From Planctomycetia bacterium (lineage in GTDB: Bacteria; Planctomycetota; Phycisphaerae; Phycisphaerales; SM1A02): a stretch of DNA of 56,792 nt. This document shows positions 12,284-55,167 of this stretch, one piece after another. Each line of letters begins with the position of its first letter. Position 1 is the stretch's first letter. The notes under the pieces are model-generated. The model worked only from the letters and a program-made list of their open reading frames with translations. It had not been told where the DNA came from and did no database searches. Made by a program: the position numbers and the translations under genes. Location of the stretch: NCBI GenBank assembly GCA_005789005.1, contig SYAD01000141.1, forward strand, positions 1 to 56,792. The letters run 5' to 3'.

Positions 12284-12287
12284 AACT

Positions 12288-35004: not shown

Positions 35005-35024
35005 TCCAAATTTCTCCGACGCTT

Positions 35025-35049: not shown

Positions 35050-35188
35050 TGCAAATCATTCAGAGAATTTTTTCTCTGATTTTGAAACCATCGACCAGTA
35101 ACTATGGCGACTTCAGTTGGATATTTGGAAAAATCACTTATTTAAAACTTCAGGTTGATCTATAGATGATGTATTGGATGGTCGAAGC

Positions 35189-35680: not shown

Positions 35681-36291
35681 AGCGCCGCGGTTTCACTCTA
35701 ATTGAAGTTGCGATCGCCTCGTTGATCACAACCGTGGTCGCCGGCGCTGTGATTGGAACCATTCGTGCGATCACAGAAAGCACATACGCCTTGGATACTG
35801 CAGCGCAAGCAATGGCCCGCGTGGCCCGCGCCGACGCACGCTTTGCCGATCACGCAAATCGCGCGCGCATGATCTTGGATCAAAGCACATTGGAAATTCT
35901 TCTGTGGCTTCCAACTGAACCATTCACTTCTAGCGCGACCAACACGAGTGACTACGACTCTATTCAGGGCAATGAATTGGCGTGGTATATCATGAACACA
36001 TCCGCGGGAACACTTTCGCTTGTCTACACCACCAATCGAAATGATCGCACGAAGTATTCGCTCAGCACAAATTGGGCAAATTTACGAACCGCTTTAACTT
36101 CGCAGGGCGCGTTGACAACCATTGCCGTTTTGGAAGGGCTGGCTTCTGGTGGATTTCGTGTGCAAGACAGCGACCCATGCAGCGTGCGTAGATTTTCTTT
36201 TGATGGATTTTTAAGCGATGACCTTGGAGGCTTGAATGTGCAGCTGAGCGGTCGTGCGTTGAACGGTCAAAATCATCCGGATTGTCCATGA
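35677..36291 (+). CDS. minor (pseudo)pilin, prepilin-type N-terminal domain
   Basis: MKRRGFTLIEVAIASLITTVV. ATGA overlap with the upstream gene. Confidence 0.75.
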   Translation: MKRRGFTLIEVAIASLITTVVAGAVIGTIRAITESTYALDTAAQAMARVARADARFADHANRARMILDQSTLEILLWLPTEPFTSSATNTSDYDSIQGNELAWYIMNTSAGTLSLVYTTNRNDRTKYSLSTNWANLRTALTSQGALTTIAVLEGLASGGFRVQDSDPCSVRRFSFDGFLSDDLGGLNVQLSGRALNGQNHPDCP

Positions 36292-38003: not shown

Positions 38004-38560
38004 ATGAAGCCATGAATGAGATCATGAGCACCAACCCCATCAAGTCCATCAACAAAGTATTGGTGTGTCGACGCGGTCAAACACTTGTTGAAATATTGAT
38101 TGTGGCCGCAATTATTGCCGTGCTTGGCGCGCTCAGTGTGAGTTTGTTGAGCCCGCGTGACGAGGAGAAAATAGAAGGGGCGGTGCGCATGTTTGCCCAA
38201 GATGCGGAATGGGCGCGCGGAGCAACGCTGACCAATCCAGACGACCCCGCAAGCATTCGCCTGATGCAAGACCAAACGGGCTGGATAGTGGCCCGTAACT
38301 CCACTCCAACTGTGGCCATGATTTGCAGCGACGGCTCTTCCATGCGTCGCGTTCTTGGGCAAGGAATGTCGCAAGCCGCTGAGGGGGTGCGGCTTGTGTC
38401 GTCAAATACTTCTCAGACCCAAGTTGAATTTGATCCATTTGGTGGCGTAAAGACCTCGCCGGCATCAATTGCCATGTTTTTGCCAGATTCCACTAGCAAA
38501 TGCACAATTACATTCGACTCTGTCACGGGCGCTATGAAGTTGAATTGGTCAAATCAATAA
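38000..38560 (+). CDS. minor (pseudo)pilin, prepilin-type N-terminal domain (GspH/FimT-like?)
   Basis: RRGQTLVEILIVAAIIAVLGAL. ATGA overlap with the upstream gene. Confidence 0.7.
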   Translation: MNEAMNEIMSTNPIKSINKVLVCRRGQTLVEILIVAAIIAVLGALSVSLLSPRDEEKIEGAVRMFAQDAEWARGATLTNPDDPASIRLMQDQTGWIVARNSTPTVAMICSDGSSMRRVLGQGMSQAAEGVRLVSSNTSQTQVEFDPFGGVKTSPASIAMFLPDSTSKCTITFDSVTGAMKLNWSNQ

Positions 38561-38607
38561 AACTTGGGCGCAAGTCACTGGCAAATTGGGTCGAACAAGG
38601 GAGGGCA

Positions 38608-40698: not shown

Positions 40699-41801
40699 AG
40701 TCACTTCTTTCATCCACATCACTTCTGCTTGTGTTCGCATTGGGCGCTTGCGCAACGCCGCACTCCAAACAAGTGCGTGAAGATGCGCACGATCGATACG
40801 ACCGCGCCAACGCGCAGGTGGTGTTTGATCAGGCCAATCAAAGTTTTCACGCCGGCCAATTTGAAGCCGCCCTGGGACATATTGACAAGGCCATTGCGCG
40901 CTATCCAAAAGATGGAAATTACGAAGTCATGCGCGGACGAATTCTGTTGGAAATGAAACGCACCGATATGGCGCGCGACGCCTTTGTGAAGGCGGCCACA
41001 CTTTCACCAACATCCGCTGATCCTCATTACTACATGGGAATAGTTTTGCAGCGGTGGAACGAGCTGGATAAAGCCGCCGCGGAATACGCCAAGGCATTTG
41101 AGTTGGCGCCGTCGCAGTTGCAATATGTTGCCGCAGAGTGTGAAACATTGATCGCGGTCGGCCGATTGGATGACGCTGAAAATAGATTGCTTGCCGTGCA
41201 AAAAACATTCGAGTTTAGTCCCGTGCTTGATCGCATACATGCGGATCTTGCGGGACAGCGCGGTGATTTAACGGAACGCGAAAGATGGTTAAGCGCGGCG
41301 CGTTTGCGCACCGAGCCAGCCAAGGCGCAGCAACTTATGGAAGAAATAGCCGTAACACGATTTGAGCAGGGCAATTGGGTGGGCTGCATTGATGCGCTTG
41401 AAGATGAGGCGCTGAAAGATTGCGTAAAATCCACCGAACTGGTTCGATTGCGCGCGCGCTGTTTGCTCATGATGGACCGCGCCCGCGACGCGCGTGATTT
41501 AATGTTGACGTTGCGCACACAAACAGATGGCGACGGAAGAAATGCCAGCGTGCTTGGTCTTGCCGCCATGCGTATTGGCGACACGGCGCGCATGATTGAT
41601 GCGGGACACATTCTCACTCAGGCTCGACCAGAGAGCGCCGATGGTTGGGTGCTTCTTGGCGTGGCCGCCATGCAAAATGGTGATCGCGCGGAGGCGGTTC
41701 GTTTGTTAAGCGAAGCCAACAAGCGCGAGCCAAACAAAAAATTACCAAAGCAATTGCTTGCGGCCGCTTCCAACGTGGCTATTGCGCGCGCCACGCCGTA
41801 A
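40695..41801 (+). CDS. TPR-repeat outer-membrane lipoprotein (PilF/PilW-like pilotin candidate)
   Basis: Lipobox LVFALGAC, multiple TPR-like repeats. ATGA overlap with the secretin stop. Confidence 0.7.
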   Translation: MKSLLSSTSLLLVFALGACATPHSKQVREDAHDRYDRANAQVVFDQANQSFHAGQFEAALGHIDKAIARYPKDGNYEVMRGRILLEMKRTDMARDAFVKAATLSPTSADPHYYMGIVLQRWNELDKAAAEYAKAFELAPSQLQYVAAECETLIAVGRLDDAENRLLAVQKTFEFSPVLDRIHADLAGQRGDLTERERWLSAARLRTEPAKAQQLMEEIAVTRFEQGNWVGCIDALEDEALKDCVKSTELVRLRARCLLMMDRARDARDLMLTLRTQTDGDGRNASVLGLAAMRIGDTARMIDAGHILTQARPESADGWVLLGVAAMQNGDRAEAVRLLSEANKREPNKKLPKQLLAAASNVAIARATP

Positions 41802-41876: not shown

Positions 41877-42644
41877 TCAGCGTCGACGTCGAACCATCAA
41901 GCCCGCAAGACCCAGCAGCGCAAATGCGCCTGGAGCCGGCACGAACCCGTAGGTAAATGTCTGATCAAAGGAGGGCTGCGATGTAGCTCCGCTGCCTGCT
42001 GTTGTGCCATTCACTTTCATGGTGACATTGCCCCTGAACTGAAGGGTCAGAACATCGGTTGTCAACATATTAGTGGTCTCAACAGAGAAGCGACCAAGCA
42101 TGATGCGTTTGTCGGCGTATGTGCCAGCCAGGGCGATTATGTCTGTTGGATTCCCGGTGAACCAACCCGCGCCTTGATACCTGCCCGCGCTGTTGCTTGC
42201 ACCAACAATGGTGCCGGCGCCAACAGTGTTTGCGTTTAAGAAGTTTGGATCCTTGGCAATGGCGGCGTCGGTGTGATCCTGCGTACGCGCGCCAATAGTT
42301 ACAAATGAATCCCAGTCTTTTGTTGCGGCGCTACCGGAAGGCAGCCAAGTTGTGCCACTGGCTTGCGCAAACCCGGCGCCGTTGGTTGGCGTCACTGCAT
42401 TGCCAGTGTTCCAGACGCCGTTGAGCGAAGTTCGCACAAGTCCGGTGTTTGTTGACGTGCCGTAGTAGCTGACAAGCTTGTCAAAAGCGCCATTGAAGTC
42501 GGCGTAAATATCCATCACTGAGTATTGACGGCTGCCATCAACTACTTGGTAATTGGTGCTTGTTATTCCAAGAAATGCGGCGTTGGCGCCGGCAACGGTG
42601 GTGGCCAAAGTAATAGAACAAACAAAGCAATTTGAGATCTTCAT
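41877..42644 (-). CDS. PEP-CTERM sorting-domain protein, paralogue 1
   Basis: Signal peptide MKISNCFVCSITLATTVAGANA. C-terminal FVPAPGAFALLGLAGLMVRRRR reads as a P-x-P motif, TM helix and Arg tail. Start set at ATG 42644. Confidence 0.75.
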   Translation of the reverse strand: MKISNCFVCSITLATTVAGANAAFLGITSTNYQVVDGSRQYSVMDIYADFNGAFDKLVSYYGTSTNTGLVRTSLNGVWNTGNAVTPTNGAGFAQASGTTWLPSGSAATKDWDSFVTIGARTQDHTDAAIAKDPNFLNANTVGAGTIVGASNSAGRYQGAGWFTGNPTDIIALAGTYADKRIMLGRFSVETTNMLTTDVLTLQFRGNVTMKVNGTTAGSGATSQPSFDQTFTYGFVPAPGAFALLGLAGLMVRRRR

Positions 42645-42787
42645 AGCTACTCCAAGATTGAAAGCACAGCCACTGGCAGAAACATAAACAAGTTCAGTTT
42701 TGCCAGGCACCCACAAGCGGTTGCAGGGGGATTAGGCAAAACACAAGAGCACAACGGCTCCTACAACTATGTAAACGTAAAAAATTG

Positions 42788-42801
42788 GTGACCTTGATCA
42801 C
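42788..42801. promoter_or_regulatory. GTGA-N6-TCAC (CRP/FNR-like core) site conserved upstream of both PEP-CTERM paralogues
   Basis: GTGAccttgaTCAC here and GTGAcggcgaTCAC at 48082-48095, each inside a longer conserved block (...GTAAACGTAAAAAAT.GGTGAC...GATCACGCAATA...). Confidence 0.3.
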
Positions 42802-42861
42802 GCAATACGAAAGATTTGTAAATTTTATATAAAGATGGGTTTGCGGCGTAAAAATCGCGTT

Positions 42862-43950
42862 TTAACGCCCTGCGGCGTCGGCAGCCATGATCGCTTCCGC
42901 CACCATATTCGCCGTTACGGGGAACGGCTCGTTGTGAACAAACTCGCTGGCAATGGTGGCGCGCGCGGCAACTTTGGCAAGCATGTCCTGGCTTAAGTTG
43001 GCGCAACCAATATCGGCCAACGTTGTGGGCAATCCAACTGACTTGCAGAACGCAATCACTTGGTTGATTTGCGCGGGGTCCGATTTTTCCAACATCAATT
43101 GAGCGATCACGCCAAAGGCAACTTTTTCGCCGTGCATGTACGCCTTTGCGCCGGGCACCACGGTGAGTCCGTTGTGAACGGAGTGGGCGCCCGCAAGACC
43201 GGCGGACTCAAAGCCCAAACCAGACAGCAATATGTTGGCTTCAATAACGCGCTCCAGCGCGGGCGTGATTGTTTTTTCTTTGGCGGCGCGCAAGGCGGCC
43301 ACGCCATCGGCCAACAATGTTTTGTAGCACAACTCCGCAATGGCCATTGAAGTAAGCGAGCGCGCACCGCCGCACATGTTTGGTTTATTGGAGCGCATGC
43401 AAGCGCGCGCCTCGAAATATGTGGAGAGCGCATCGCCCATGCCGGCAACAAACGTACGCACCGGCGCGTTGGCGATCACGTGCGTGTCCACAAGAATCAA
43501 CATTGGATTGCGCGGGTGAATGAGAGCTGTTTCAACCACGCCTTGCTCGTTGTACACAACAGAAATGGCGCAGGTTGGCGAATCGGTGGAGGCAATGGTG
43601 GGGCAACATATAAATGGAAGCTCAAGTTCCGCCGCCGCCGCGCGCGAGGCGTCCAATACCTTGCCGCCGCCGGCGCCAACAATAATGGCGCTCTTGGCGG
43701 CGCGCGCTGTTGCAGCAATGCTGGCGATTTCCGCGGCGGTGCATTCGCGCGCAAAGTCATGAATGGAAAACGCGTAGCCGGTTTGCGTGAGCGAGTCACG
43801 CCAAATATTTTCAAGCAACTTGCGCGGCGAGGCGCTAGCCACAATCAACACGTGGCCGCGTAGACCAAGCACTTTCATTTCGGCGCCAAGACTTTGCGTC
43901 GCGTGGGCGCCTTGCGTGTATCGAAGCGGGGAGCAGAAAATTGTGTTCAT
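42862..43950 (-). CDS. gldA: glycerol dehydrogenase (iron-containing ADH family)
   Basis: RYTQG..., IIVGAGGGKVLD, and HNG/HGEKVAFG metal-binding histidines, typical of GldA. Confidence 0.85.
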   Translation of the reverse strand: MNTIFCSPLRYTQGAHATQSLGAEMKVLGLRGHVLIVASASPRKLLENIWRDSLTQTGYAFSIHDFARECTAAEIASIAATARAAKSAIIVGAGGGKVLDASRAAAAELELPFICCPTIASTDSPTCAISVVYNEQGVVETALIHPRNPMLILVDTHVIANAPVRTFVAGMGDALSTYFEARACMRSNKPNMCGGARSLTSMAIAELCYKTLLADGVAALRAAKEKTITPALERVIEANILLSGLGFESAGLAGAHSVHNGLTVVPGAKAYMHGEKVAFGVIAQLMLEKSDPAQINQVIAFCKSVGLPTTLADIGCANLSQDMLAKVAARATIASEFVHNEPFPVTANMVAEAIMAADAAGR

Positions 43951-44051
43951 GCGTGTCAGGGTACTGCTCTACACATCGTGCGCGTAGGATTGAGTTAGAC
44001 TTATTTATCAGGCGTTTCAGCTCAGCATAAACCAAGAAAGATTCAAATCAA

Positions 44052-44564
44052 ATGAGCAACAAAAAAACAATGTGGATGTCTGCAATGGTGATCGCGGCTT
44101 CAGTATGCGTGGTGGCGATTCTTGGCGCAGCGAATCAAGCTTCCGCACCAACGGCGGCTCCAGAGAAGGAAACCCGCGAAGCCGTGGCGCAATTTTATAA
44201 GGCGCTGAATGTGTTGTTCACGGGCGACGTGAAGCCCATGAACGATGTGTGGTCTCATGCCGACGATGTCACCTACATGGGTCCAGCCGGCGGTTTTCAG
44301 ATTGGTTGGAAAAACGTAGGTGAGGAGCTTGGTCGTCAAGCCGCAATGAAGTTGGGCGGAAAGATTGAGCCATCCGACATTCACGTGATCGTCATGGGTG
44401 GCGCGTTGGCCATTGTAAGTAATTACGAGAAGGGCGAGAACGTTGACGCGGCGGGTAAAAAAGTTCCAGTATCAATCCGCGCCACCACCACATTCCGCAG
44501 CGAAGGCGGCAAGTGGAAAATGATTGGGCATCACACGGATTTGTTGCCGTCGCTTGCAAAGTAA
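44052..44564 (+). CDS. exported SnoaL-like / DUF4440 (NTF2 superfamily) protein
   Basis: N-terminal TM/signal, then AVAQFYKALNVLFTGDVKPMNDVWSHADDVTYMGP and a ...GGKWKMIGHH ending, typical of this fold. Confidence 0.6.
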   Translation: MSNKKTMWMSAMVIAASVCVVAILGAANQASAPTAAPEKETREAVAQFYKALNVLFTGDVKPMNDVWSHADDVTYMGPAGGFQIGWKNVGEELGRQAAMKLGGKIEPSDIHVIVMGGALAIVSNYEKGENVDAAGKKVPVSIRATTTFRSEGGKWKMIGHHTDLLPSLAK

Positions 44565-44649
44565 ATCGCGATCAACTTGATGTGAGCGGCTGTATTCTTT
44601 GCACGCCACTTCATCGATCACTGTTTATTCAAGGGCAAGTATTCCAATC

Positions 44650-45840
44650 ATGAATTGCGCATCACATTTTATTTCAGTATTTAAAAATTCCGCCGCGCGC
44701 ATTGCCGCGCCATTTATTTTGGCGGCATTGTCGCTGTTGTCCGGTTGCGCCACCGCTTCATCACGCGCCGCGTATTGCCCACCCAAGGTTGCGTGGGAAA
44801 GAAAGTCGCCCGCAGAAGTTGGCTTTGACGCCAATCAACTTGCCCAAGCCATCGCGTGGGCGCAAACGCAACCAACGGATTGGCCTACGGATTTTTCCAC
44901 ACAGACGGAAATATTTGGCAAGCAGCTTGGTCCAGTGCCCAAGAGTCGCGCCGCCATGAACGGAATTATTCTTCGCCACGGTTACATCGTTGCGGAATTT
45001 GGCGACGTAGAAGCGGTGGACCCTTCATACAGCATGGCCAAAAGTTACTTGTCAACCATTCTTGGTTTAACCATTGATCGCGGCATGATTGGCGACATTC
45101 ACGATGAAGTTGGATTGCTTGTGAAAGATGGCGGCTACGAATCGCCGCACAATTCCAAAGTGACGTGGAAACATCACGCAACACAAAGCAGCGAGTGGCA
45201 GGGCGAATTGTTTGGAAAGTCCACCACCTTTGTTGGCAAGGAAGAATATGGCCACGCCGCAGCGAAGCCGCGCGACATTCACGAGCCCGGGACTTTTTAT
45301 GAATACAACGACGTGCGCATGAATCGCCTTGCGTTGTCGCTGCTTCGCTTGTGGAAACGACCACTGCCCGACGTGTTGAAAACAGAAATCATGGATCCCA
45401 TTGGCGCGTCGAATACTTGGCGCTATATCCCATACGACAACGCGTTTGTTGATGTGAATGGAACGATGATGGGATCGGTCAGCGGCGGCACGCGCTGGGG
45501 CGGCGGACTGTGGATGGACTCGCTGGATCACGCGCGCTTTGGACTTTTAATTTCTCGCAATGGAAATTGGAATGGCAAACAAATTATTTCAAGCGAGTGG
45601 ATTGAACAAGCGACTCGCCCGCAGGGCATGAACCCCGAGTACGGATATTTGTGGTGGCTGAACACAACGGGTCGTTGGCCCGCCGCGCCCAAGACATGTT
45701 TTTCCGCGCAGGGTGCGGGCGACAACTCCATTTGGATTGATCGCGAACACGATCTTGTTGTGGTCTGGCGTTGGCACAAAGGCGCGCAAGTTCCGGCCGA
45801 GTTCTACAAGCGAATCTTGCAGTCACTTACGGATGCGTGA
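44650..45840 (+). CDS. beta-lactamase-related serine hydrolase, lipoprotein
   Basis: Lipobox LSLLSGC and SxxK motif (YSMAKS). Size and pattern fit class C beta-lactamase / esterase-like hydrolases. Start set at ATG 44650. Confidence 0.75.
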   Translation: MNCASHFISVFKNSAARIAAPFILAALSLLSGCATASSRAAYCPPKVAWERKSPAEVGFDANQLAQAIAWAQTQPTDWPTDFSTQTEIFGKQLGPVPKSRAAMNGIILRHGYIVAEFGDVEAVDPSYSMAKSYLSTILGLTIDRGMIGDIHDEVGLLVKDGGYESPHNSKVTWKHHATQSSEWQGELFGKSTTFVGKEEYGHAAAKPRDIHEPGTFYEYNDVRMNRLALSLLRLWKRPLPDVLKTEIMDPIGASNTWRYIPYDNAFVDVNGTMMGSVSGGTRWGGGLWMDSLDHARFGLLISRNGNWNGKQIISSEWIEQATRPQGMNPEYGYLWWLNTTGRWPAAPKTCFSAQGAGDNSIWIDREHDLVVVWRWHKGAQVPAEFYKRILQSLTDA

Positions 45841-45902
45841 AGAGGCAAGCCTGGATTGAATAAGTAAGAACTCGGTTGTGTTCAATTATTTACAATCACG
45901 TT

Positions 45903-47120
45903 CTAGCGTGGCGACTCTTTGCGCGTGCCTTTAATTTTTGGGGCCACTACTGGCGCCGCTACTGGCGCCACTTCTGGCGACACTTCTGGCGGCGCGCACG
46001 GTCCGTAGTTCACCAACTGCAAACCAACATCCGCGCCGTTCACTTCATTGTCGCCGTTCAGGTCGCCGCAGTTCAGTTGCGCGGTGAGGGCGGCGTTGGC
46101 GGTGGTGAGAGCGGCGTTAGCGGTGGTGGCGTCGGACAACAGTTCAATAAAGCTCTTTGCCTGCACTGCAGCAACGTTGTAACCAGATGCGACAATTGAT
46201 GTGACGCCAACAAGGTCCGGCGGCACATTGCACTCGCCTTGGGTGTTGTTGCCCCACACGCGAACCAAGCCGTCCACCTGCAGCGCCACGCTGTTGTAAT
46301 TGCCAGCCGCGACAGCGATGCATGCCCCGATACCAACGGGAACGTTGAGCTGGCCTTGGTAGTTGTCTCCCCACGTACGGACAGTGCGGTTTTCGCGGAG
46401 CGCAATCCCGTGACGATCGCCGATCGCGATTGCGGTGGACGCGCCAACATCCGAGGGCACGGTGCAGACGCCACTAGCGTTAGATCCCCACATGATCACC
46501 GTTCCGTTGGCTTGAATCGCTCCGGAGTTGTCGTCCCCGGCAGCGATGGCCTTGCAGGCCCCAAGGTCCGCAGGCACCGCGCATTGATTCTTGTCGTTCC
46601 TGCCCCATGCGCGCACGATGCCACTTTCCTGCAGGGCAACGATGTGGTTGCTCATGCACGCGATGGCTTTGCAAGCTCCGAGATCTGTCGGAATTGTTTT
46701 CGTGCCGTAAGAATCCGTTTTGCCCCACACGCGCACGATGCCATCCGTGCGGAGCGCGACACTGATAGAGGTACCCGCCGCAATGGCCTTGCAGGCTCCA
46801 AGGTCCGATGGCGCAACCGTCTGGCCATAGTTGAAGTTGATGCCACTGTAGGTATTCGCTCCCCAACCACTAATGCTGCCATTCGGGAGCAGCGCGAGAC
46901 CGTGTTCGGTGCTCAGTGCCACAGCCGTTACCCCCTCAACAATTTGTGGTGGGCTCGCCTGACCCAAGAGATTGGCTCCCCACACGCGGGCCATGCTTTG
47001 CGCGTGTGCGGTGCCAACCACTGCCATCGCCCCCGCGGCAGCGATGAACGCCGCCATCGCGCTAGCACGAACGGAATGCGATGGGGTTACGAACGGTAAG
47101 GATGTGAGTTTAAGTTGCAT
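45903..47120 (-). CDS. secreted RCC1-like beta-propeller repeat protein with C-terminal dockerin/EF-hand-like module
   Basis: Signal peptide. Roughly 40-aa repeats of (V/A)R(V/A)WG.N..GQ..VP.DLGACKAIAAG....VAL. C-terminal CGDLNGDNEVNGADVGLQLVNYGPC followed by a Pro/Val/Ala tail. Confidence 0.7.
   Translation of the reverse strand: MQLKLTSLPFVTPSHSVRASAMAAFIAAAGAMAVVGTAHAQSMARVWGANLLGQASPPQIVEGVTAVALSTEHGLALLPNGSISGWGANTYSGINFNYGQTVAPSDLGACKAIAAGTSISVALRTDGIVRVWGKTDSYGTKTIPTDLGACKAIACMSNHIVALQESGIVRAWGRNDKNQCAVPADLGACKAIAAGDDNSGAIQANGTVIMWGSNASGVCTVPSDVGASTAIAIGDRHGIALRENRTVRTWGDNYQGQLNVPVGIGACIAVAAGNYNSVALQVDGLVRVWGNNTQGECNVPPDLVGVTSIVASGYNVAAVQAKSFIELLSDATTANAALTTANAALTAQLNCGDLNGDNEVNGADVGLQLVNYGPCAPPEVSPEVAPVAAPVVAPKIKGTRKESPR
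45944..45991 (-). repeat. 12-nt in-frame tandem repeat x4 in the 3' coding end of the RCC1/dockerin gene
   Basis: ccactactggcg / ccgctactggcg / ccacttctggcg / acacttctggcg on the + strand, encoding PEVS-PEVA-PVAA-PVVA-type units on the - strand. Confidence 0.8.
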
Positions 47121-47175
47121 GTAAGGGCTTTCTAAAAAATGGAATGAAAGAAATTTGTAAAAGAGTGTTCACCAT

Positions 47176-47943
47176 TCAGCGTCGACGTCGAGCTATCAAG
47201 CCCGCAAGACCCAGCAGCGCAATTGCGCCTGGAGCCGGCACGAACCCGTAGGTAAATGTCTCATCGAAGAACGGCTGCGATGTAGTTCCACCGCCCGCGC
47301 TTGTGCCATTCACTTTCATGGTGACATTGCCCTTGAACTGAATAGCCAGCACATCGGTTGTCAGCATGTTGGTGGTCTCAACAGAGAAGCGACCAAGCAT
47401 GATGCGCTTGTCGGCGTATGTGCCGGCCAGGGCGGATATGTCTGTTGGATTAGTGGTGAACCAGCCCGCACCTTGATAAGCACTTGCGCTATTGCTTCCA
47501 CCAACAATGGTTTCGGCGCCAACAGTGTTTGCGTTTAAGAAGTTTGGATCCTTGGCAATGTCAGCGTTGATGTAATCCTGCGTGCGCGCACCAATAGTTA
47601 CAAATGAATCCCAGCCGTTGCTTGCGGCGCTAGCGGAAGGCATCCAACCTGTGCCGCTGGCTTGAACAAATGCGGCGCCGTTGGTTGGCGTCAATGCACT
47701 GCCAGTGTTCCAGACGCCGTTGAGCGAAGTTCGCACAAGGCCGGTGTGTGTTGTGGTGCCGTAATAGTTGACAAGCTTGTCAAAGGCGCCGCTAAAGTCG
47801 GCGTAAATATCCATCACGGAGTATTGACGGCTGCCATCGACTACTTGGTAATTGGTGCCTGTTATTCCAAGGAACGCGGCGTTGGCGCCTGCAACAGTGG
47901 TGGTTAAAACAATAGAACCAACAACGTAATTCGAAATCTTCAT
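47176..47943 (-). CDS. PEP-CTERM sorting-domain protein, paralogue 2
   Basis: Collinear with 41877-42644, with most residues identical by eye. C-terminal FVPAPGAIALLGLAGLIARRRR. Start set at ATG 47943. Confidence 0.75.
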   Translation of the reverse strand: MKISNYVVGSIVLTTTVAGANAAFLGITGTNYQVVDGSRQYSVMDIYADFSGAFDKLVNYYGTTTHTGLVRTSLNGVWNTGSALTPTNGAAFVQASGTGWMPSASAASNGWDSFVTIGARTQDYINADIAKDPNFLNANTVGAETIVGGSNSASAYQGAGWFTTNPTDISALAGTYADKRIMLGRFSVETTNMLTTDVLAIQFKGNVTMKVNGTSAGGGTTSQPFFDETFTYGFVPAPGAIALLGLAGLIARRRR

Positions 47944-48193
47944 AACGGCTCCAGGGCTAAGCCCCCCCGAGGGCAGAAACTTGAACAACTTCGGTTTCAT
48001 TAAACATCCGCAGGTTGGTGCGGGTGTTTGGCAAAACATAAGAGCAAACAACTCTTACATGCACGTAAACGTAAAAAATGGGTGACGGCGATCACGCAAT
48101 ATAAAATTTTTATTGAGGCGATTTTTCACCCAAGTTATCGGGAGTTTTGAAATGGCTGCCTTTGTGCGGCGCGCGCTTTTTGGGGCGATCACA

Positions 48194-48240
48194 TCAATCG
48201 GTTACGCGTTCGGCGGGGCAGCAAGTATTCGTGCGCAGTG
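48194..48240 (-). pseudogene. remnant resembling the 3' end (and downstream flank) of the Pls-like synthetase gene
   Basis: Minus-strand reading gives ...LRTNTCCPAERVTD* compared with ...ANATYAGCPAERVAD* at the real gene end (49660-49700). Flanking DNA 48139-48193 also aligns by eye with 49594-49659. Confidence 0.45.
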
Positions 48241-48269
48241 CCACACACGTGCTTTGCCAAGCAAAAAAA

Positions 48270-48307
48270 CCGCACGGCTTCTTAGGGCCGTGCGGTGGTT
48301 TTTTTTA
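48270..48307. terminator. bidirectional rho-independent terminator
   Basis: A7 run, 9-bp GC-rich stem CCGCACGGC (48270-48278) / GCCGTGCGG (48287-48295), then TGG-T8. Confidence 0.7.
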
Positions 48308-48336
48308 ACTTTCAATCACCGCTTGTCATGCGCCAC

Positions 48337-48420
48337 TCACTGCGGGCACGGTCCGTAGTTGAGCAACAGCAAGCCAACATCCGCGCTATTACACTTCAAC
48401 TGCGCAAGCCAGGGCCAAGT
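48337..48420 (-). pseudogene. orphan 3' fragment of a dockerin-like-module gene
   Basis: Minus-strand reading gives ...AQLKCNSADVGLLLLNYGPCPQ*, matching AQLNCGDLNGDNEVNGADVGLQLVNYGPC of 45903-47120 in both DNA and protein, with a 27-nt gap. An in-frame stop lies immediately upstream and there is no start codon. The terminator at 48270-48307 lies just downstream. Confidence 0.5.
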
Positions 48421-48443
48421 TCACCGCCTAAGAAAGGGATGAC

Positions 48444-49604
48444 ATGAAGCTGGAAATACTCGTGCATGCACAGCGCATGACCATCACGCTCGCTGGCCAA
48501 CTTGATGTGAATGCGGCGCCAGCTCTTGAGGCGGTGCTCGATCAGCAACTTCAGAACATCACCGAGCTCGTACTCGATGTGGACGGCTTGGAATATGTCT
48601 CGTCGGTGGGGCTGCGCGTGATCTTGCACGCGCAACAAAAAATGAAGGCGGCTCACGGAAATCTGTTGGTGAAGAATGTGAGCCAGCCAATCGCGGACAT
48701 TCTGGAGATGTCCGGCCTTGATCGCGTTCTACATTTTCAGCGCAAGCACAGGCAACTGTCAGTGGCGGGCTTGCAGATGATCGCCAAGGGGGCCAACGGC
48801 GAGTGCTACAAGGTGAATGAAGATACCGTGGTGAAGTTGTACTTTGACTTTGTCGACGATGGATGCGCCGAACGTGAGAAGGAATTGGCGACGAAGGCGT
48901 TCGTGGCCGGCGTTCCAACAGCTCTCTCTTTCGAGGTGGTGCAGTGCGGCACACGCAATGGCGTGATGTATGAGATGCTGAAGGCGGACACGTTGGCGCT
49001 GTATATGGAAAAAAATATTGAGCGCTTGGATGAAGTGGTGGCGATGTACGTGCGCTTTTGCAAGCAGATCCATGCGATTGCGGGTGATACAAGTTCCTTC
49101 CCCGATGCCGTCACGCTGGCGTGCGGATATGTTGATGCCTGCGAATTCTTCAACGATGGTCAGCGCGCGTTCATGAAGGAGCGACTGATGCGCACCGAGC
49201 GGTGCGGGACGCTGATCCACTGGGATATGCATCCAGGAAACATCATGATGCAGGGCGACAGTCTGTGCTTGATCGACATGGGCGACATGGCCGTGGGCAC
49301 GCCATACTTTGATCTTGGGCAAATTAAACAAGTGCTGCACTACTACGCAAGCCTTGGTCTGTGCCACAAGTTCATCGGACTCGGTGATGCCAACGCGATG
49401 CGCGTGTGGCAGATGTTTGTTGTTGGCTACTTCGACAATCCAGACCCGGACGCGTTGAAGGCGATCGAGGCGGATATTGACTTCTACCGCGCGATCAAGA
49501 ACGTGTACTTGTATTTGTGCGGCAGCGGCGGCGAAACTATGCGTGCGCGACGCAGGGACTTTATCTTTCAGATGATGCCGAAGGATTTTGCGGAGTTGAA
49601 ATGA
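48444..49604 (+). CDS. STAS-domain (anti-sigma-antagonist-like) / aminoglycoside-phosphotransferase-fold kinase fusion protein
   Basis: N-terminal ~100 aa: ITLAGQLDVNAAPALEAVL...LVLDVDGLEYVSSVGLRVIL...LLVKNVSQPIADILEMSGLDRVLHF (STAS). The remainder has a nucleotide-binding Lys (VVKLYF), the Brenner motif LIHWDMHPGNIMM (HxDxxxxN) and LIDMGDMAVG. SD AAAGGGA lies upstream. Confidence 0.75.
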   Translation: MKLEILVHAQRMTITLAGQLDVNAAPALEAVLDQQLQNITELVLDVDGLEYVSSVGLRVILHAQQKMKAAHGNLLVKNVSQPIADILEMSGLDRVLHFQRKHRQLSVAGLQMIAKGANGECYKVNEDTVVKLYFDFVDDGCAEREKELATKAFVAGVPTALSFEVVQCGTRNGVMYEMLKADTLALYMEKNIERLDEVVAMYVRFCKQIHAIAGDTSSFPDAVTLACGYVDACEFFNDGQRAFMKERLMRTERCGTLIHWDMHPGNIMMQGDSLCLIDMGDMAVGTPYFDLGQIKQVLHYYASLGLCHKFIGLGDANAMRVWQMFVVGYFDNPDPDALKAIEADIDFYRAIKNVYLYLCGSGGETMRARRRDFIFQMMPKDFAELK

Positions 49605-49659: not shown

Positions 49660-52600
49660 TCAATCAGCCACGCGCTCGGCGGGACAGCCGGCGTATGTGG
49701 CGTTGGCGTCAAGGCGCTCGTTTTTCATAATCACACTGTGCGGCGTCACCAGCGCGCCATCGCCAATGTTGGCGCCGTAAAACAGAACCGCGTGATGGCC
49801 CAGCGACGCGTCGCGGCCAATGTGCACGTGGTCAATTTTCAGAATGCGGTCCTCGAAACTGTGCGCTTGAAAGTTGCAGTCCACCGTGGCGTTGTCGCCA
49901 ATGGAAAGCATGTCGGGATCAACCACCTGCGTGAATCCGCCGCCAAGCACCACGCGCTTGCCAATGCGCACGCCAATCATGCGCAGGAACACGGTGAGGA
50001 AAACCGTTCCTTCAAGGCGCTCCAAGAAACCGCGCGCGTACATGCTCCAGGCCACAAACAGAAAATCCCAGCGGCTGCACCAGCAACTCCACAGCACGTG
50101 TTGGCCCGGTTTCACGCGCCCAATGAGCGTCCACTTTAGAAAAATAATGCAGCCGATCATGGCGATTGCGGCCGCAAGTGTTGCCAGCGGCGCAATCACA
50201 AATGCAATCGTTGGTGTGTTGAAATTGGTGTTGGCTCTTGCGGCGGCTAGTGCAACAATCCACGCCGCCGCGACCGCGATGGGATATACCGGCAATAGAA
50301 ATCGCAACGCTTCCCACAAGAGGCGATTGATATATCGAATGGCGCTTGGATTGTGCGTAAGGCTGCGATCCACTTGCACAACTTCGCGCCGCGGAAGTTG
50401 CATGGGTGGATGACCAAACCACGCGGAGTCCGCGCTTGCAATGGATGCGTTGGCCACGGTGCTTACGCCCACAAAGAAATCGTGTGGATACACGTGGCCC
50501 GCGGGAATGACCGCGTGATTTCCAATGAAGGTGTTGTTGCCCAGCGTTGTCGCGCCAATGGTGACCACGTTGCGATGCACGCGCGGCGCGGCAAAATAAA
50601 TTCCGTCGGCAAAGAAACACGTGTCGCCAATGGTGACGGTGTCGGGCACCACATCAATAATGGTGGAGATTTCACAACCGCGACCAATGCGCATGCCGGC
50701 AAGACGCAACCATGTTGGCCAGAACAAAGTTCCGCTAAGCCACAGACACGCGCGCTCTAGCGCATGCGACTTGGCCCAAATGCAAATATATTCCGCGCTC
50801 CAACGATTCACGGCGCCGGGACGAGTGCGCGCTAGCAAACGCAGGGAAAGTGCTTGCGCAAGAAGGCCGGTGATTACGCATGCGGGCGCGCCGACAAGTA
50901 CAAACAACAAGAACGTAAACGGGTTGGTCCGCGGGTTCACGGGCGCGTCTATATATAGATACGTCAGCGCCATCCAGGGCAGCGCGGAAATGGTTGTTTG
51001 CAGCCAGAGTGAAAGCAGCGTGAGCAGCGCGTGCTTCACTGGATCAATTGATTGACCGCGCGCATTGGCGGTGGCAGGTTCCGTCATGCCAACTTTTTCC
51101 GCGGGAACGCCGTCCCATCGTTCACCAGTTGGAATGTATTCACCTTCATGTAGCCACGAGAGCGCGCCAAGTGAGGAACCTGGTTCCATGTTGGTGTTGT
51201 GCGAAACGCCGGCGCGCACATCAATGGTGCAACCGTTGCCAATGGTCACGGGCGCAAGCACAAGTTGTCCATCGCACAGTTCAACCATGCCAACGGAAGA
51301 TTCTTGCGCAAGCGTGACGTTGTTGCCGATGGTCAACAAGTCCCACGCGCCGCCGCGAATGTCAACGCTGCGGTGAATGTGAACGTTCTTGCCAATGCGC
51401 GCGCCAAGCAGCCGCAGAACCGAGTTGAAGAAAATAGTTCCTTCAAGCATGCCCCACGGAATTGTGCGCGCGATTTGTTGCACGCTCCAGAAGCGTAAGT
51501 AGCGCGCGCTGAAAACCGGCATGGTTGTTGCGCGTACGCGGCCAAGTAATACGCGCTTTGCAAGCACGGCAAGCGTAATAGTGAATGCGCTGTAGATGGC
51601 CAGCGCGATGGCAATGAGTACTGGCGAAAGTGCGATGAGTAATTTTATGCTCAGTGTGTTGGCTAGGGCGGGCAGGGCTAGGAACACCAGCGCGTATGCG
51701 GCGGCGCCGGTGGTGATAAGGCTTGCGATGAGTCCAAGTGATTGCGCGAGTGCGGCAAGCAGTGGGTTTGCTGCTCGTTCGCCGGCGCGCACGCGCGGCG
51801 CGGGGGAGTGTTCGGTGGTGGTTGTTGCAGCGGATTTTTGGTGTGCGTTTGTTTGTGTGTTTGCGCCGTTACTGTGAGTTGTGCGTGTGTTTGCGCTTGC
51901 GCTTTCAGTTGAGCCCGCGCTTTCAGGTTCAGCGTGTGTTGCAGCGCGACCTTTGCTGGCGGCAAATTTCAATTGCAATTCTTGCGCGCGCTGCGCAAGC
52001 CGCTGCGTTGTGCGAAACATATACAGATCGCGCACGGTCAGTCGCGCGGTGAGTGGATGCGTGCGCAAGGTGCACAACGCGCCAACCGCGCTCAGCGAAT
52101 CGCCGCCGAGCGTGATAAAGAAATCGTCGTCAATAGAAAGTTCATCCGTGCGTTTGAGCGCGCGCGCGAAGGCGCTGAGAATAATCCGCTCATGCTCGTT
52201 GCTTGGCGCAATCGCGGGCGTGTCGCGCGCTTGAAGCGCAACGCCGGCGTCCACTTCTGGAAGTTTGGCGCGCGCAATCTTTCCGCCAATGGTGCGCGGC
52301 ACGCGGTCAATTAAAACAAACTTGCTGGGCACCATGTACAAAGGAAGCGCCTTGGTGAGCGCGTCGCGCAACGCGTCAAAGTGCGGCGGCGCGTTCGTGT
52401 CGCTGGCGACAATGTGCGCAACAATAATGTGCGCGCCTTCATTACCCTGCACGCGGCACGCGGCTTCAAGCACGCCGTTGCATTGACCAAGCAGCGAATC
52501 AATGGCCGCAAGTTCCACGCGGTAGCCGCGCAATTTCACTTGGCCATCAATGCGACCAAGAAATTCAAAGTTGCCGCACGTGGCAAGGCGCGCCAAATCT

Positions 52601-54078
52601 CCCGTGCGATATATGCGGCCAAGCTCTGGATGATCGACAAATTTTTCCGCCGTCACCTCTGGACGATTGCGATATCCACGCGCCACGCCAACGCCGCTGA
52701 TGCAGAGTTCGCCCTCCACGCCAACTGGAACTTGTTGCATTGACTCATCCAAAATATGCGCGGTATGTCCAATGATGGGCTTGCCAATGGTGACCGCAAC
52801 GCCGCTGTACATGCGCGTTCGAACTACGGTCACCGTGCATTCAGTTGGGCCGTAGCCATTTTCCAACCAGCGACCGTCGCTCCATAAATCAGCCAAATCC
52901 TGGGGCAAAGCTTCGCCGCCCACATAGACCAACTTCACATTGGGCAAAGATTGGCGCGGATTTTCACAACCAGTTGTGCGCAACAATGTTGGCGGCGGAC
53001 AGAACACGCTAATGCGTTCGTTGTTCAGCCACGGAATTAAATCGGGGCCAAGTCGAACGGTTTCATCATCAAGCAACACAAGCGTGGCGCCCACCGCGAA
53101 GGCAAGCCACGTTTCTTCAATTGACGAGTCGTAGGCGGGCGAAGAAAATTGCGCCACGCGATCAGTGTGGTCAAGTCCGTAGCGCGCCTTATCGGCGTTG
53201 ACCAAGTTGGCAACGCTGTGATGTTCAATCATCACGCCCTTGGGCTTGCCTGTTGTTCCAGATGTGTAAATGACATACGCCAATGAGCGCGGATGAATTG
53301 TTGGCGGCGTGAATGTTGAAGTTGGTGGGGGAGTAATTGCTGAAGATGTTTGCAGCGTTGATGCGGAAGATGTTGGCGGCGTAATTTCGGAAACTGGTGG
53401 CGACATAAACGCAAACGTTGTTTGCAAAGGAGATGCGGATTTTGGTTGCGCGGCGGTTGTCAATTCTTTGAGCGGCGTAATTGTGGAAATTGTTTGCCGT
53501 GTTGTGGAAGACGTAGGCGTGTTGGCGTGTGAGCGCGCCGCATGCGTAAGCGCAACAACATCGATCACAAGTCGATCACCCGCAAGATCCTCCGCGGCCA
53601 GCCGAGCCACGCCCGCTGCGTCGGTCAAGATCACGCGCGCGTCCGCGTCCACAAGCACCGCGCGAATGTGGTCATTTGGAAAGAGCGGGTCCAAGCACGT
53701 GAACGCCGCGCCCGCGCGCAACACGCCAAGTTGCGACGCATACAAACTAGCGGTCTCGCGCGGAAGCAGCACGGCGACAATAGATTCATTTTCTTGCGCG
53801 TGCTGTTGCGCACCAGCGCTGTCTTGCTGCACGTGAAGTTGGTCGCCATTATTTATTTCGCGCGCGTGATTTGTGTGCGCATAATTTGCACCCGCATGCC
53901 CAGAATATTTTGCAATCCCCTCACCAACCGCGCGCGCAACGTCGCTGGCCGCGCGGTCCAGTTGCGTATACGTGGTGAGTTGCCTGTGCGCGCGCTCCCT
54001 GCCAGGTGGAACATCAATCGCAACCACGTCTGGATGAAGCGCAACATTGTGCGCAAAAAGATCAGTCAGCAATTGCAT
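49660..54078 (-). CDS. Pls/PosA-family membrane-embedded NRPS-like homopoly(amino acid) synthetase (A-T-TM-C1-TM-C2-TM-C3)
   Basis: Adenylation motifs (YVIYTSGTTGKPKGV, NGYGPTE, YRTGD, GRIDGQVKLRGYRVEL, GGKIARAKL). Carrier motif FFITLGGDSLSAV. No C or TE domain. Three hexapeptide-repeat domains are separated by paired hydrophobic helices. Start set at ATG 54078 (MQLLTDLFAHNVALHPD...). Confidence 0.85.
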   Translation of the reverse strand: MQLLTDLFAHNVALHPDVVAIDVPPGRERAHRQLTTYTQLDRAASDVARAVGEGIAKYSGHAGANYAHTNHAREINNGDQLHVQQDSAGAQQHAQENESIVAVLLPRETASLYASQLGVLRAGAAFTCLDPLFPNDHIRAVLVDADARVILTDAAGVARLAAEDLAGDRLVIDVVALTHAARSHANTPTSSTTRQTISTITPLKELTTAAQPKSASPLQTTFAFMSPPVSEITPPTSSASTLQTSSAITPPPTSTFTPPTIHPRSLAYVIYTSGTTGKPKGVMIEHHSVANLVNADKARYGLDHTDRVAQFSSPAYDSSIEETWLAFAVGATLVLLDDETVRLGPDLIPWLNNERISVFCPPPTLLRTTGCENPRQSLPNVKLVYVGGEALPQDLADLWSDGRWLENGYGPTECTVTVVRTRMYSGVAVTIGKPIIGHTAHILDESMQQVPVGVEGELCISGVGVARGYRNRPEVTAEKFVDHPELGRIYRTGDLARLATCGNFEFLGRIDGQVKLRGYRVELAAIDSLLGQCNGVLEAACRVQGNEGAHIIVAHIVASDTNAPPHFDALRDALTKALPLYMVPSKFVLIDRVPRTIGGKIARAKLPEVDAGVALQARDTPAIAPSNEHERIILSAFARALKRTDELSIDDDFFITLGGDSLSAVGALCTLRTHPLTARLTVRDLYMFRTTQRLAQRAQELQLKFAASKGRAATHAEPESAGSTESASANTRTTHSNGANTQTNAHQKSAATTTTEHSPAPRVRAGERAANPLLAALAQSLGLIASLITTGAAAYALVFLALPALANTLSIKLLIALSPVLIAIALAIYSAFTITLAVLAKRVLLGRVRATTMPVFSARYLRFWSVQQIARTIPWGMLEGTIFFNSVLRLLGARIGKNVHIHRSVDIRGGAWDLLTIGNNVTLAQESSVGMVELCDGQLVLAPVTIGNGCTIDVRAGVSHNTNMEPGSSLGALSWLHEGEYIPTGERWDGVPAEKVGMTEPATANARGQSIDPVKHALLTLLSLWLQTTISALPWMALTYLYIDAPVNPRTNPFTFLLFVLVGAPACVITGLLAQALSLRLLARTRPGAVNRWSAEYICIWAKSHALERACLWLSGTLFWPTWLRLAGMRIGRGCEISTIIDVVPDTVTIGDTCFFADGIYFAAPRVHRNVVTIGATTLGNNTFIGNHAVIPAGHVYPHDFFVGVSTVANASIASADSAWFGHPPMQLPRREVVQVDRSLTHNPSAIRYINRLLWEALRFLLPVYPIAVAAAWIVALAAARANTNFNTPTIAFVIAPLATLAAAIAMIGCIIFLKWTLIGRVKPGQHVLWSCWCSRWDFLFVAWSMYARGFLERLEGTVFLTVFLRMIGVRIGKRVVLGGGFTQVVDPDMLSIGDNATVDCNFQAHSFEDRILKIDHVHIGRDASLGHHAVLFYGANIGDGALVTPHSVIMKNERLDANATYAGCPAERVAD

Positions 54079-54162
54079 CAAATGTATCTTATGAATTATT
54101 ACGCAAAGTAAATGCAAACCCCCCCAGACGCACTTTAAGTACCGCCCGCCAAGTCCCGCGTC

Positions 54163-54337
54163 GCAGAAAGGGTGGCACCACAAGCGAGTTTAGCACCATC
54201 GCAAGCCCTGCTTGCGATGGGTGCGTTGTCTGAGCGACTGGTGCCACCCTTTCTGCAAAGCGTTCACTCGCCAGCAAGCATTACTTTCCCAAGACCTCTT
54301 CTATTTACAAAGCCCAGACTGGCGCCACCCTTTCCGC
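54163..54337. repeat. three copies of an 18-nt motif (GCAGAAAGGGTGGCACCA or its complement). Copies 1 and 2 form an 18-bp perfect inverted repeat enclosing a 9-bp inner hairpin
   Basis: 54163-54180 is the exact reverse complement of 54239-54256. The inner stem is 54197-54205 / 54211-54219. The third copy, 54320-54337, has 2 mismatches and is in direct orientation to copy 2. Each copy contains the GGTG-N-CACC palindrome. Confidence 0.7.
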
Positions 54338-54426: not shown

Positions 54427-55167
54427 ATGAAAAATATCCACAAGAGTCAAATTGCTTTCGTCATCGCGGGCTTGCTTGGTTTAAACGTCGCAGTTGGAAT
54501 TGCCGCGCAGAAATCTGATCAAGCGCAACCCACTCGCGCCAGCGCCAACACTTCGCCAGCCGCCGCGATTGCGTATTTGAATTTAAAAAATAGTGCCGGC
54601 GTTGCCACCAAAGAGGCGTACTTTGCAAAAAATCCAGCGGCGCGTGACACCAAGTTGGCGGGCCAGGCTCCGTATGTTGCCATTCTGAGTTGCGCGGACT
54701 CGCGCGTTCCAATGGAGGCGGTGGTTGAATCTGACTCCGGCTCGATGGCTAGTGATATTTTCTCAGTGCGCGTTGCGGGCAATGTGGTTGGTGATGACGC
54801 CATCGCATCACTTGAGTACGCGGTGAAATATCTCAACACACCGTTGCTGCTTGTGCTTGGACATGAACAATGCGGCGCCGTAAGCGCGACCATGGGTGAC
54901 TATGGAGTTGGCGGCGCGCTTCCACAGTTGCTTGGAAAGATTCGACCAGCCGTTCAAATGGGCACAAAAAATTGCGCTGGCTGCACACCAGATCAGTTGT
55001 TGGAAAAGTGCATTGAAGAGAACGTCCGCCTTGGCATGAATGAACTCATGAGCAAGAGCGAGAAAATTCGCACGCTTGTGGGCGAAGGCAAGATTGCGAT
55101 TGGATGCGGCGTGATCAATCTTGCGAACAATAAGATCAAATGGGTCGTTGCTCCAGCCGTTAAATAA
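54427..55167 (+). CDS. beta-class carbonic anhydrase with signal peptide
   Basis: CADSRVP and LGHEQCGAV zinc-ligand motifs. N-terminal hydrophobic signal IAFVIAGLLGLNVAVGIAA. Confidence 0.85.
   Translation: MKNIHKSQIAFVIAGLLGLNVAVGIAAQKSDQAQPTRASANTSPAAAIAYLNLKNSAGVATKEAYFAKNPAARDTKLAGQAPYVAILSCADSRVPMEAVVESDSGSMASDIFSVRVAGNVVGDDAIASLEYAVKYLNTPLLLVLGHEQCGAVSATMGDYGVGGALPQLLGKIRPAVQMGTKNCAGCTPDQLLEKCIEENVRLGMNELMSKSEKIRTLVGEGKIAIGCGVINLANNKIKWVVAPAVK

Follow-up and report, generated by a model that had tools for sequence, protein, structure and literature searches.

On the minus strand of a 56,792-nucleotide stretch of DNA from a Planctomycetia bacterium (contig SYAD01000141.1, positions 1 to 56,792; called the window below), a single gene encodes a 1472-residue protein in which one adenylation (A) domain and one carrier or thiolation (T) domain are followed by a large membrane domain. 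We found that this protein has the architecture of Pls and PosA, and we conclude that it is probably a functional, stand-alone, single-module synthetase of the Pls/PosA superfamily, similar to non-ribosomal peptide synthetases (NRPS), which would work by a cationic homopolymer mechanism and belongs to a large uncharacterised branch marked by the substrate pocket code DSECYGGVTK. The synthetase is a further member of a known branch of the family that has already been flagged, and it will not surprise a specialist.

Domain architecture of the synthetase

In the Pfam search, the synthetase matched AMP-binding (E=3.8e-62), AMP-binding_C, PP-binding (27.9 bits, as compared to a gathering score of 20.8) and Hexapep, and there was no match to a condensation, epimerisation or thioesterase family at E<=0.01. 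In the NCBIfam search, the amino-acid adenylation domain model TIGR01733 scored 339.3 bits, over its cut-off of 317.4, and among the matches listed the multi-domain NRPS models covered the A-T region only. The model TIGR02353 (Pls/PosA family non-ribosomal peptide synthetase) aligned residues 796-1467 with profile positions 19-695 of 695 (E=7.4e-118). A previous reading of this DNA, made from the sequence alone without database searches (the sequence-only reading), had described an A-T order with no condensation, epimerisation or thioesterase domain and had named TIGR02353, AMP-binding and PP-binding as the profiles to search; all three matched, and all 17 motifs that it quoted are present in the order that it gave. 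These include A1 (LTTYTQL) at residues 34-40, A3 at 268-282, A5 at 407-413, A10 at 594-606, the carrier motif FFITLGGDSLSAV at 653-665 and hexapeptide-like groups at 895-923, 1131-1156 and 1372-1426. When we searched the Protein Data Bank (PDB), the A domain matched LgrA (E=7e-141), GrsA (E=3e-75), the Pls A domain 7wew (E=1e-59) and PosA (E=1e-48), and AlphaFold2 (AF2) modelled its core with a predicted local distance difference test (pLDDT) score >90. Ser661 of the carrier domain is the phosphopantetheine-attachment residue, and both G659 and S661 are invariant across 70 sequences.

The frame that encodes the synthetase is listed as open at 49660..54183 (-), over 1507 residues from a TTG codon. 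Starting instead from the ATG at 54078 gives the 1472-residue protein with the N-terminus MQLLTD. This start is common to five of the seven closest homologues, the sixth begins with MRLLTD and the seventh has an 18-residue N-terminal extension; because the closest homologues mostly share the MQLLTD N-terminus, we take the ATG start to be correct. To ask how the gene evolves, we compared it with the orthologues at two related loci (L005 and L001) and found ratios of non-synonymous to synonymous substitution (dN/dS) of 0.13-0.18 for the whole gene, 0.08-0.11 for the A core and 0.12-0.14 for the terminal domain. With values of 0.08-0.14 in its catalytic parts, the synthetase gene is therefore under purifying selection.

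The C-terminal membrane domain is built from three repeats. Segments 766-1005, 1006-1245 and 1246-1472 align with one another at z=14-20 as compared to shuffled sequences, with approximately 26-33% identity, and in an AF2 model of residues 761-1472 made with 70 homologues (mean pLDDT 92.1, predicted template modelling score 0.92) we observe the same unit three times: two long helices (28-37 residues) and a few short ones lead into a left-handed beta-helix. Membrane helices were judged from this model together with Kyte-Doolittle hydropathy, in which the 19-residue mean is 2.0-2.5 for five of the six long helices (the sixth, helix 3, is taken up in the Discussion). The sequence-only reading had picked out three hexapeptide segments, each behind a pair of hydrophobic stretches, and the repeats and the model bear this out. 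The second helix of every pair is followed by an Arg/Lys-rich stretch, which fits a topology in which all three beta-helices would be cytoplasmic, beside the A and T domains.

Searches of the PDB by sequence gave weak hexapeptide-transferase matches in all three repeat segments, and the sequence and fold searches returned solely hexapeptide-repeat acyltransferases and gamma-carbonic-anhydrase-like proteins, with one beta-helix each. With Foldseek, the terminal-domain model matched left-handed beta-helix (LbH) acetyltransferases with a template modelling (TM) score near 0.6 normalised to the target and <=0.19 normalised to the query; the PDB copy that we searched by sequence and with Foldseek gave no structure covering an entire Pls-type terminal domain. 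Each C-terminal repeat therefore resembles the LbH acyltransferases (galactoside/maltose O-acetyltransferase, serine acetyltransferase), and the packing of its three beta-helices within one chain mirrors that of the subunits in the LbH trimers. In contrast to those enzymes, the three beta-helices are fused in one polypeptide with a six-helix membrane anchor, and the acyl donor would be a carrier-protein thioester rather than acyl-CoA. In the published AlphaFold model of PosA, three left-handed beta-helices pack together above six bent helices, in a roughly three-fold symmetric arrangement (PMC10522769), and our model of the terminal domain agrees with that description, which answers the fold-model comparison that the sequence-only reading had suggested. 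Taken together, the end-to-end TIGR02353 match, the internal repeats, the AF2 model and the Foldseek matches uphold its assignment of the protein to the Pls/PosA architecture and family, and, judged by alignment, homology of the terminal domain to Pls/PosA over its full length is beyond doubt.

Compared with the two characterised enzymes, the synthetase shares with Pls of Streptomyces albulus (7WEW) the single A and T domains, the lack of condensation and thioesterase domains, the six membrane helices in three pairs with beta-helices C1-C3, the stand-alone gene and the residues D235 and E239 of the pocket. With PosA of Acinetobacter baumannii (8G95-8G98) it shares the architecture, a Gram-negative host and a stand-alone gene without co-transcribed partners. 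However, the A domain matches both GrsA and LgrA more strongly than it matches Pls, and, as described below, the pocket differs from those of both enzymes.

The pocket code marks a widespread branch

To place the substrate pocket, we checked the GrsA-PheA numbering on the 1AMU chain and aligned the synthetase to the GrsA sequence of 1AMU. The direct alignment puts D317, S318, E321, C360, Y385, G387, G408 and K600 at GrsA positions 235, 236, 239, 278, 299, 301, 322 and 517. The pairwise alignment has a 3-residue gap directly after GPTE, and V416 and T417 (positions 330 and 331) were assigned by the conventional fixed spacing of 322+8 and 322+9; the structure-based numbering of PosA (T304, V312, S313) follows the same spacing (PMC10522769). 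The resulting code, with positions 330 and 331 from the fixed spacing, is DSECYGGVTK, exactly the code that the sequence-only reading had derived by hand. D317 and E321, at GrsA 235 and 239, are the first and third residues of this code, and Asp at position 1 and Glu at position 3 are conserved in all cationic homopolyamino acid (CHPA) synthetases (Patel & Gulick 2023; PMC10522769).

Going by the sequence, the code is not new. The sequence-only reading had been unable to place it; however, DSECYGGVTK has been published verbatim for OFZ39577.1 of Bdellovibrionales and WP_072382105.1 of Novosphingobium sp., with the substrate given as unknown (Patel & Gulick 2023; PMC10522769). In that work, L-arginine was the best substrate tested for the Bdellovibrionales A domain (Bdello_A), the four known diamino acids gave no higher activity, and the authors proposed that the true substrate is perhaps a larger, polymerisable analogue (PMC10522769). 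The codes published for other members are DAESIGTV(V/I)K for lysine, DMEHNGTVSK for ornithine, DFEALGTV(V/T)K for diaminopropionate (Dap) and DGESISVVNK for beta-lysine (PMC10522769). The synthetase has neither the lysine-type nor the ornithine-type code: it has 5 of 10 positions in common with the lysine type (DAESIGTVVK in Pls), and where PosA binds the delta-amine through the polar residues T304 and S313, the synthetase has G and T.

Both published proteins resemble the synthetase in having an identical code and the A-T-terminal-domain architecture. In the case of Bdello_A, near-identical motifs (among them LENGYGPTECTVTV and KLVYVGGEALP) could be found in in-frame pieces of the construct DNA in the supplement, a text damaged by optical character recognition with frameshifts; we discarded the 34% identity calculated from it as meaningless and keep the likeness at the level of motifs only. 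In contrast to Bdello_A, the synthetase has three lineage-specific inserts (approximately 150 extra residues) and a Phycisphaerae-like planctomycete host. In Novosphingobium genomes, clade members are 42-48% identical to the synthetase and have the same code.

The best 120 homologues are full-length proteins, 43-92% identical to the synthetase, and DSECYGGVTK is present in 107 of the 121 sequences when these are aligned with the query. In a scan of GTDB species-representative genomes, we found at least 580 stretches encoding relatives; from these we fetched 84 related loci for counts of codes and neighbours, and 73 of them, across phyla, have the code. We also scanned 1.84 billion cluster representatives exhaustively with HMMER, and 478 clusters (50% identity) matched the terminal domain at E<=1e-30. 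The hosts of the clade include many cultured actinomycetes (Amycolatopsis, Kutzneria, Lentzea, Planosporangium and Streptomyces) as well as members of Planctomycetota, Acidobacteriota, Verrucomicrobiota, Gemmatimonadota, Armatimonadota, Spirochaetota, Novosphingobium and Sphingomonas. For the synthetase itself, the best named relatives are from Phycisphaerales, Phycisphaerae and Tepidisphaera, and for the MnmE protein of the window they are Phycisphaerales and Planctomycetota proteins. The sequence-only reading had pointed to a non-actinobacterial, PVC-like context; the MnmE relatives support the placement, but the suggestion that it is out of the ordinary did not hold. The Pls/PosA family extends beyond many bacterial phyla to archaea, fungi and some eukaryotes, and a member from the planctomycete Singulisphaera has been tabulated (PMC10522769). 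Because the clade is in many phyla and a planctomycete member was already catalogued, a non-actinobacterial host of a Pls-type enzyme is not unusual. We found nothing in the literature on later characterisation of the DSECYGGVTK clade beyond Patel & Gulick 2023.

Some clade members are fused to further membrane domains, PF07786 (HGSNAT-like) and PF04235 (DUF418). Homologues with extra domains are P0035, P0052, P0058, P0066, P0091, P0100, P0101, P0107 and P0115 (approximately 1700 residues) and P0098, and in one of them the fusion is to a 4'-phosphopantetheinyl transferase domain (PF01648).

A SET-domain gene recurs upstream of related synthetases

To find recurrent neighbours, we clustered the open reading frames of the 84 related loci plus the window, and the sole recurrent neighbour was a SET-domain gene. 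A second clustered family (14 loci) was taken as an artefact, its representative being an antisense open reading frame within a high-GC actinomycete gene. The small SET gene (approximately 145-230 residues) is directly upstream and co-directional in 40 of the 79 loci with enough upstream DNA, in at least six phyla, and typically ends within approximately 100 bp of the synthetase start. Examples are L024:5403-5987, L009:5344-5973, L007:5525-5971, L063:5486-5971, L010:1281-1853 and L003:7364-7915.

The SET protein matches Pfam PF00856 above the gathering score and keeps the NHSC and F/Y-x-Y motifs and the Cys-rich tail. Among solved structures, it comes closest to BurB (9L4T; E=7.7e-12 across almost its whole length), well ahead of histone methyltransferases, which match at approximately 1e-5. 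BurB methylates free L-methionine to the cationic S-methylmethionine, the first step to a sulfonium acid that is loaded by an A domain onto the malleicyprol assembly line (PMC12542666, PMC7496086). In our reading of the BurB alignment, the SET proteins have Trp at BurB Ser88, the residue that faces the methyl-transfer site, so their substrate need not be methionine. Since BurB methylates a free amino acid that is later loaded by an A domain, the SET partner could conceivably supply the clade with its cationic monomer, either by making it or by modifying it. In the literature searched, we found nothing linking SET-domain proteins with poly-L-lysine, NRPS or Pls-type enzymes.

Low-complexity inserts in the adenylation domain and linker

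As compared to its homologues, the synthetase has extra segments that the alignment places at residues 56-93, 189-250 (inside the low-complexity stretch 183-257) and 699-748. Insert 1 is 38 residues long in the synthetase and 6-22 in its closest relatives, and across the query and its seven closest homologues the three inserts are 6-38, 36-62 and 18-58 residues long. Among the 121 sequences, they are confined to the query and these seven homologues (P0001-P0007, 83-92% identity) and are not found in the next relatives at 61%. Tandem Repeats Finder detects an imperfect 24-bp tandem repeat at 53299-53392 (3.9 copies, 68% matches) that encodes part of insert 2, which suggests that this insert grows and shrinks by slippage.

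We modelled residues 1-700 with AF2 (mean pLDDT 83.4). The only low-confidence segments, both lacking secondary structure, are residues 62-80 of insert 1 (pLDDT <50) and 188-248 of insert 2 (pLDDT 26-44); the remainder of the A domain and the carrier is mostly confident, with means of 57-98 over 10-residue blocks. For the three inserts pooled, dN/dS is 0.26-0.39 against the L005 and L001 orthologues, above the values for the catalytic parts. The region between A2 and A3 is a known permissive site, and it is there that entire extra domains are accommodated in interrupted A domains. The three inserts evolve faster and vary in length, and they behave as tolerated surface loops or linkers, predicted to be disordered, that would have no catalytic role. 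The sequence-only reading had listed the inserts as unusual features; three are present near the positions that it gave, but they are better described as lineage-specific disordered segments than as functional additions.

Genomic neighbourhood

The positions of the gene, its domains and its immediate neighbours are listed in Table 1.

Table 1. Positions of the synthetase gene, its domains and inserts, and the flanking genes in the window.
Feature	Position	Strand	Details
Synthetase gene, Pls/PosA-type, 1472 aa	49660..54078	(-)	stop codon 49660-49662, ATG 54076-54078
Adenylation domain, aa 1-610	52249..54078	(-)	core motifs A1-A10 intact; AMP-binding, TIGR01733 and PDB matches
Insert 1, aa 56-93, His/Gln/Asn/Ala-rich loop between A1 and A2	53800..53913	(-)	121-sequence alignment, AF2
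Insert 2, aa 183-257, Thr/Ser/Pro-rich, between A2 and A3	53308..53532	(-)	121-sequence alignment, AF2, Tandem Repeats Finder
Carrier (thiolation) domain, aa 633-696	51991..52182	(-)	PP-binding E=2.9e-6; Ser661 in LGGDSL
Linker from carrier to first membrane helix, aa 697-772, including Ala/Thr/Ser-rich insert 3 (aa 699-748)	51763..51990	(-)	alignment, composition
Repeat unit 1: helices aa 773-809 and 818-845; beta-helix C1 aa ~894-1000	51064..51762	(-)	AF2, hydropathy, weak PDB hexapeptide-transferase matches, repeat z
Repeat unit 2: helices aa 1013-1042 (amphipathic) and 1053-1081; beta-helix C2 aa ~1129-1225	50344..51063	(-)	AF2, hydropathy, PDB, repeat z; Pfam Hexapep aa 1166-1192
Repeat unit 3: helices aa 1246-1282 and 1288-1319; beta-helix C3 aa ~1369-1472	49663..50343	(-)	AF2, hydropathy, PDB, repeat z
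STAS + APH-like kinase fusion, downstream, convergent	48444-49604	(+)	55-bp gap to the 3' end of the synthetase gene
Beta carbonic anhydrase, upstream, divergent	54427-55167

The flanks of the synthetase gene are the STAS/APH fusion and the beta carbonic anhydrase, and no peptidase or tailoring gene adjoins it, as the sequence-only reading had stated; the lack of an adjoining polymer-degrading gene is a difference from Pls. The fusion protein is unusual, with an N-terminal STAS domain of the anti-sigma-factor-antagonist type and an APH/choline-kinase-like phosphotransferase. Farther along the window are genes for RCC1-repeat, PEP-CTERM-like-tailed, beta-lactamase-fold, SnoaL-like and Fe-ADH proteins, and then a TPR and type II secretion/pilus-like cluster. 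In the contig of an 83%-identical relative (L001), the gene order is carbonic anhydrase, synthetase, TPR, secretin, and seven genes at 41877-49604 of the window (unknown, Fe-ADH, SnoaL-like, beta-lactamase-fold, RCC1-repeat, PEP-CTERM-like-tailed and STAS+APH) are absent from the corresponding place, L001:12288-13066. By gene order, the difference is an insertion in the window or a deletion in L001. The GC content from 46 to 54 kb is 0.55-0.57, slightly over the window average.

We considered both flanking genes as functional partners of the synthetase and rejected both. Among the three homologue loci for which genes were listed, the carbonic anhydrase adjoins the synthetase gene only in the 83%-identical relative and the STAS+APH fusion is adjacent in none. 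There is a separate APH-family gene approximately 5 kb upstream in L001, and no APH gene is recurrent among the clade loci. In more distant relatives, the neighbours of the synthetase are unrelated to those in the window. The gene stands alone, like pls and posA, and in this the sequence-only reading was right.

Other features of the window were observed in passing. The intergenic region between the synthetase and carbonic anhydrase genes (54160-54334) contains GAAAGGGTGGCRCC three times in 170 bp, twice in direct and once in inverted orientation. In the 5' leader of the synthetase gene, two of these copies pair in a perfect stem of approximately 20 bp, inside which lies a second hairpin (fold z=-5.5). 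No Rfam family matched this leader hairpin above threshold; the sole match, below threshold, was to a plant microRNA precursor, an identity that we rejected as a generic hairpin resemblance. The GAAAGGGTGGCRCC motif is absent from all 84 related loci. The gene for the RCC1-repeat beta-propeller protein (45903-47120 (-)) is next to that for the PEP-CTERM-like-tailed protein (47176-48051 (-)). The former protein has, by eye, an Asp/Asn/Gly-rich, dockerin-like stretch near its C terminus, with no Pfam match for the stretch, and the latter has no Pfam matches and ends in the PEP-CTERM-like sorting signal VPAPGAIALLGLAGLIARRRR. The type II secretion/type IV pilus-like cluster spans 28577-41801 and encodes GspF-like, GspE-like ATPase, PilN-like, several N-methyl pseudopilin, secretin and TPR proteins, and the YidC and MnmE genes are at 12192-16125.

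Discussion

By analogy with Pls and PosA, the A domain would adenylate a cationic alpha-amino acid with ATP, with D235 binding the alpha-amine and E239 the side-chain cation, and the amino acid would be loaded as a thioester on Ser661 of the carrier. The membrane-embedded, pseudo-trimeric beta-helix domain would then transfer it to the amine of a free monomer or oligomer, and repeated transfer would yield a short secreted polycation that is never covalently held by the enzyme. In Pls, the acceptor is free and the chain grows iteratively (PMC9205021). The monomer is probably not lysine, ornithine, diaminobutyrate (Dab) or Dap; it may instead be a cationic amino acid that is larger or carries a modification.

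Several observations weigh against this reading. The TIGR02353 score of the synthetase (394.8 bits) is below the curated equivalog-domain cut-off of NCBI (423.1), a difference from Pls that also explains why proteins of the clade have only the public name "amino acid adenylation domain-containing protein". Seven other clade members (P0005, P0008, P0015, P0026, P0060, P0078 and P0111) match the model end to end and are likewise below the cut-off (348-394 bits), and the clade is just outside what NCBI curators treat as functionally equivalent to Pls/PosA. Helix 3 (residues 1013-1042) is amphipathic and weakly hydrophobic, with a Kyte-Doolittle maximum of 1.27. Activity data for the clade come from an A domain alone, that of Bdello_A with L-arginine, and if arginine is the real substrate, its guanidino group is a poor nucleophile for isopeptide polymerisation. 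Patel & Gulick suggest a different, polymerisable analogue as the true substrate (PMC10522769). Finally, a six-frame profile search of the whole 56.8-kb window gave no match to the SET gene, which is also absent from the contigs of the two closest relatives, so the SET lead concerns the clade and not the locus in the window. More tentatively, the whole DSECYGGVTK clade may make an undescribed polycation from a monomer outside the known diamino acids. Candidates are arginine or a related guanidino acid and a methylated cationic amino acid (such as S-methylmethionine or an N-methylated basic amino acid), which the SET partner could supply in approximately half of the clade; in the planctomycete lineage of the window, the SET gene would then be elsewhere in the genome or dispensable.

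We weighed three other explanations against a cationic homopolymer synthetase of this branch. The one that we take most seriously, though we consider it rather unlikely, is that the protein is a membrane aminoacyl-transferase that makes a single transfer of a cationic amino acid to a lipid head group or glycan of the envelope and so changes the surface charge. The closest folds of the repeats are indeed sugar and small-molecule O- or N-acyltransferases, arginine, the sole known substrate in the clade, has no good side-chain nucleophile, fusions to HGSNAT-like and DUF418 domains of membrane acyltransferase type occur in part of the clade, and the stand-alone gene has housekeeping-type neighbours and occurs in many Gram-negative phyla. 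However, all superfamily members characterised so far polymerise iteratively, with a free amino acid or oligomer as acceptor, no genes for acceptor synthesis are conserved beside the synthetase in the 84 loci and the window, and there is no experimental hint of such a product.

That the synthetase makes one of the known polymers (epsilon-poly-lysine, delta-poly-ornithine, poly-Dap, poly-Dab or poly-beta-lysine) appears improbable to us. It has the same architecture and the D235/E239 pair typical of the known cationic polymer synthetases, but its code differs from all those published, sharing only half of the positions with the lysine type, Bdello_A was no more active with any of the four known diamino substrates, and the strictness of the code across phyla argues for a distinct substrate. 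We give hardly any credence to a decaying or inactive copy with an A domain disrupted by the low-complexity insertions. Insertions of 38 and approximately 75 residues do lie in the N-terminal half of the A domain, one of them partly a 24-bp tandem repeat; however, the frame is intact over 4.4 kb, the core motifs and the attachment serine are kept, dN/dS is low in the catalytic parts, and the AF2 core is confident with the inserts modelled as excluded disordered loops. In addition, inserts of varying length persist at the same sites in all seven relatives at 83-92% identity, and the A2-A3 region is permissive for insertion in A domains.

The family makes short polycationic peptides, of which epsilon-poly-lysine is a commercial food preservative and delta-poly-ornithine is antifungal. 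For this family, the locus adds that the branch reaches freshwater Phycisphaerae-like planctomycetes, that the A domain and the linker from carrier to membrane tolerate large disordered insertions, and that the branch falls narrowly short of the NCBI family model. The conserved SET-methyltransferase partner at related loci, which points to concrete substrates, is of more use as a lead, and experiments would better start from the cultured clade members (Kutzneria, Amycolatopsis, Novosphingobium) than from an uncultured genome. The branch to which the synthetase belongs is widespread in soil and freshwater bacteria, and identification of its product would add a new natural polycation and, for an unusual membrane polymerase, a new substrate class.

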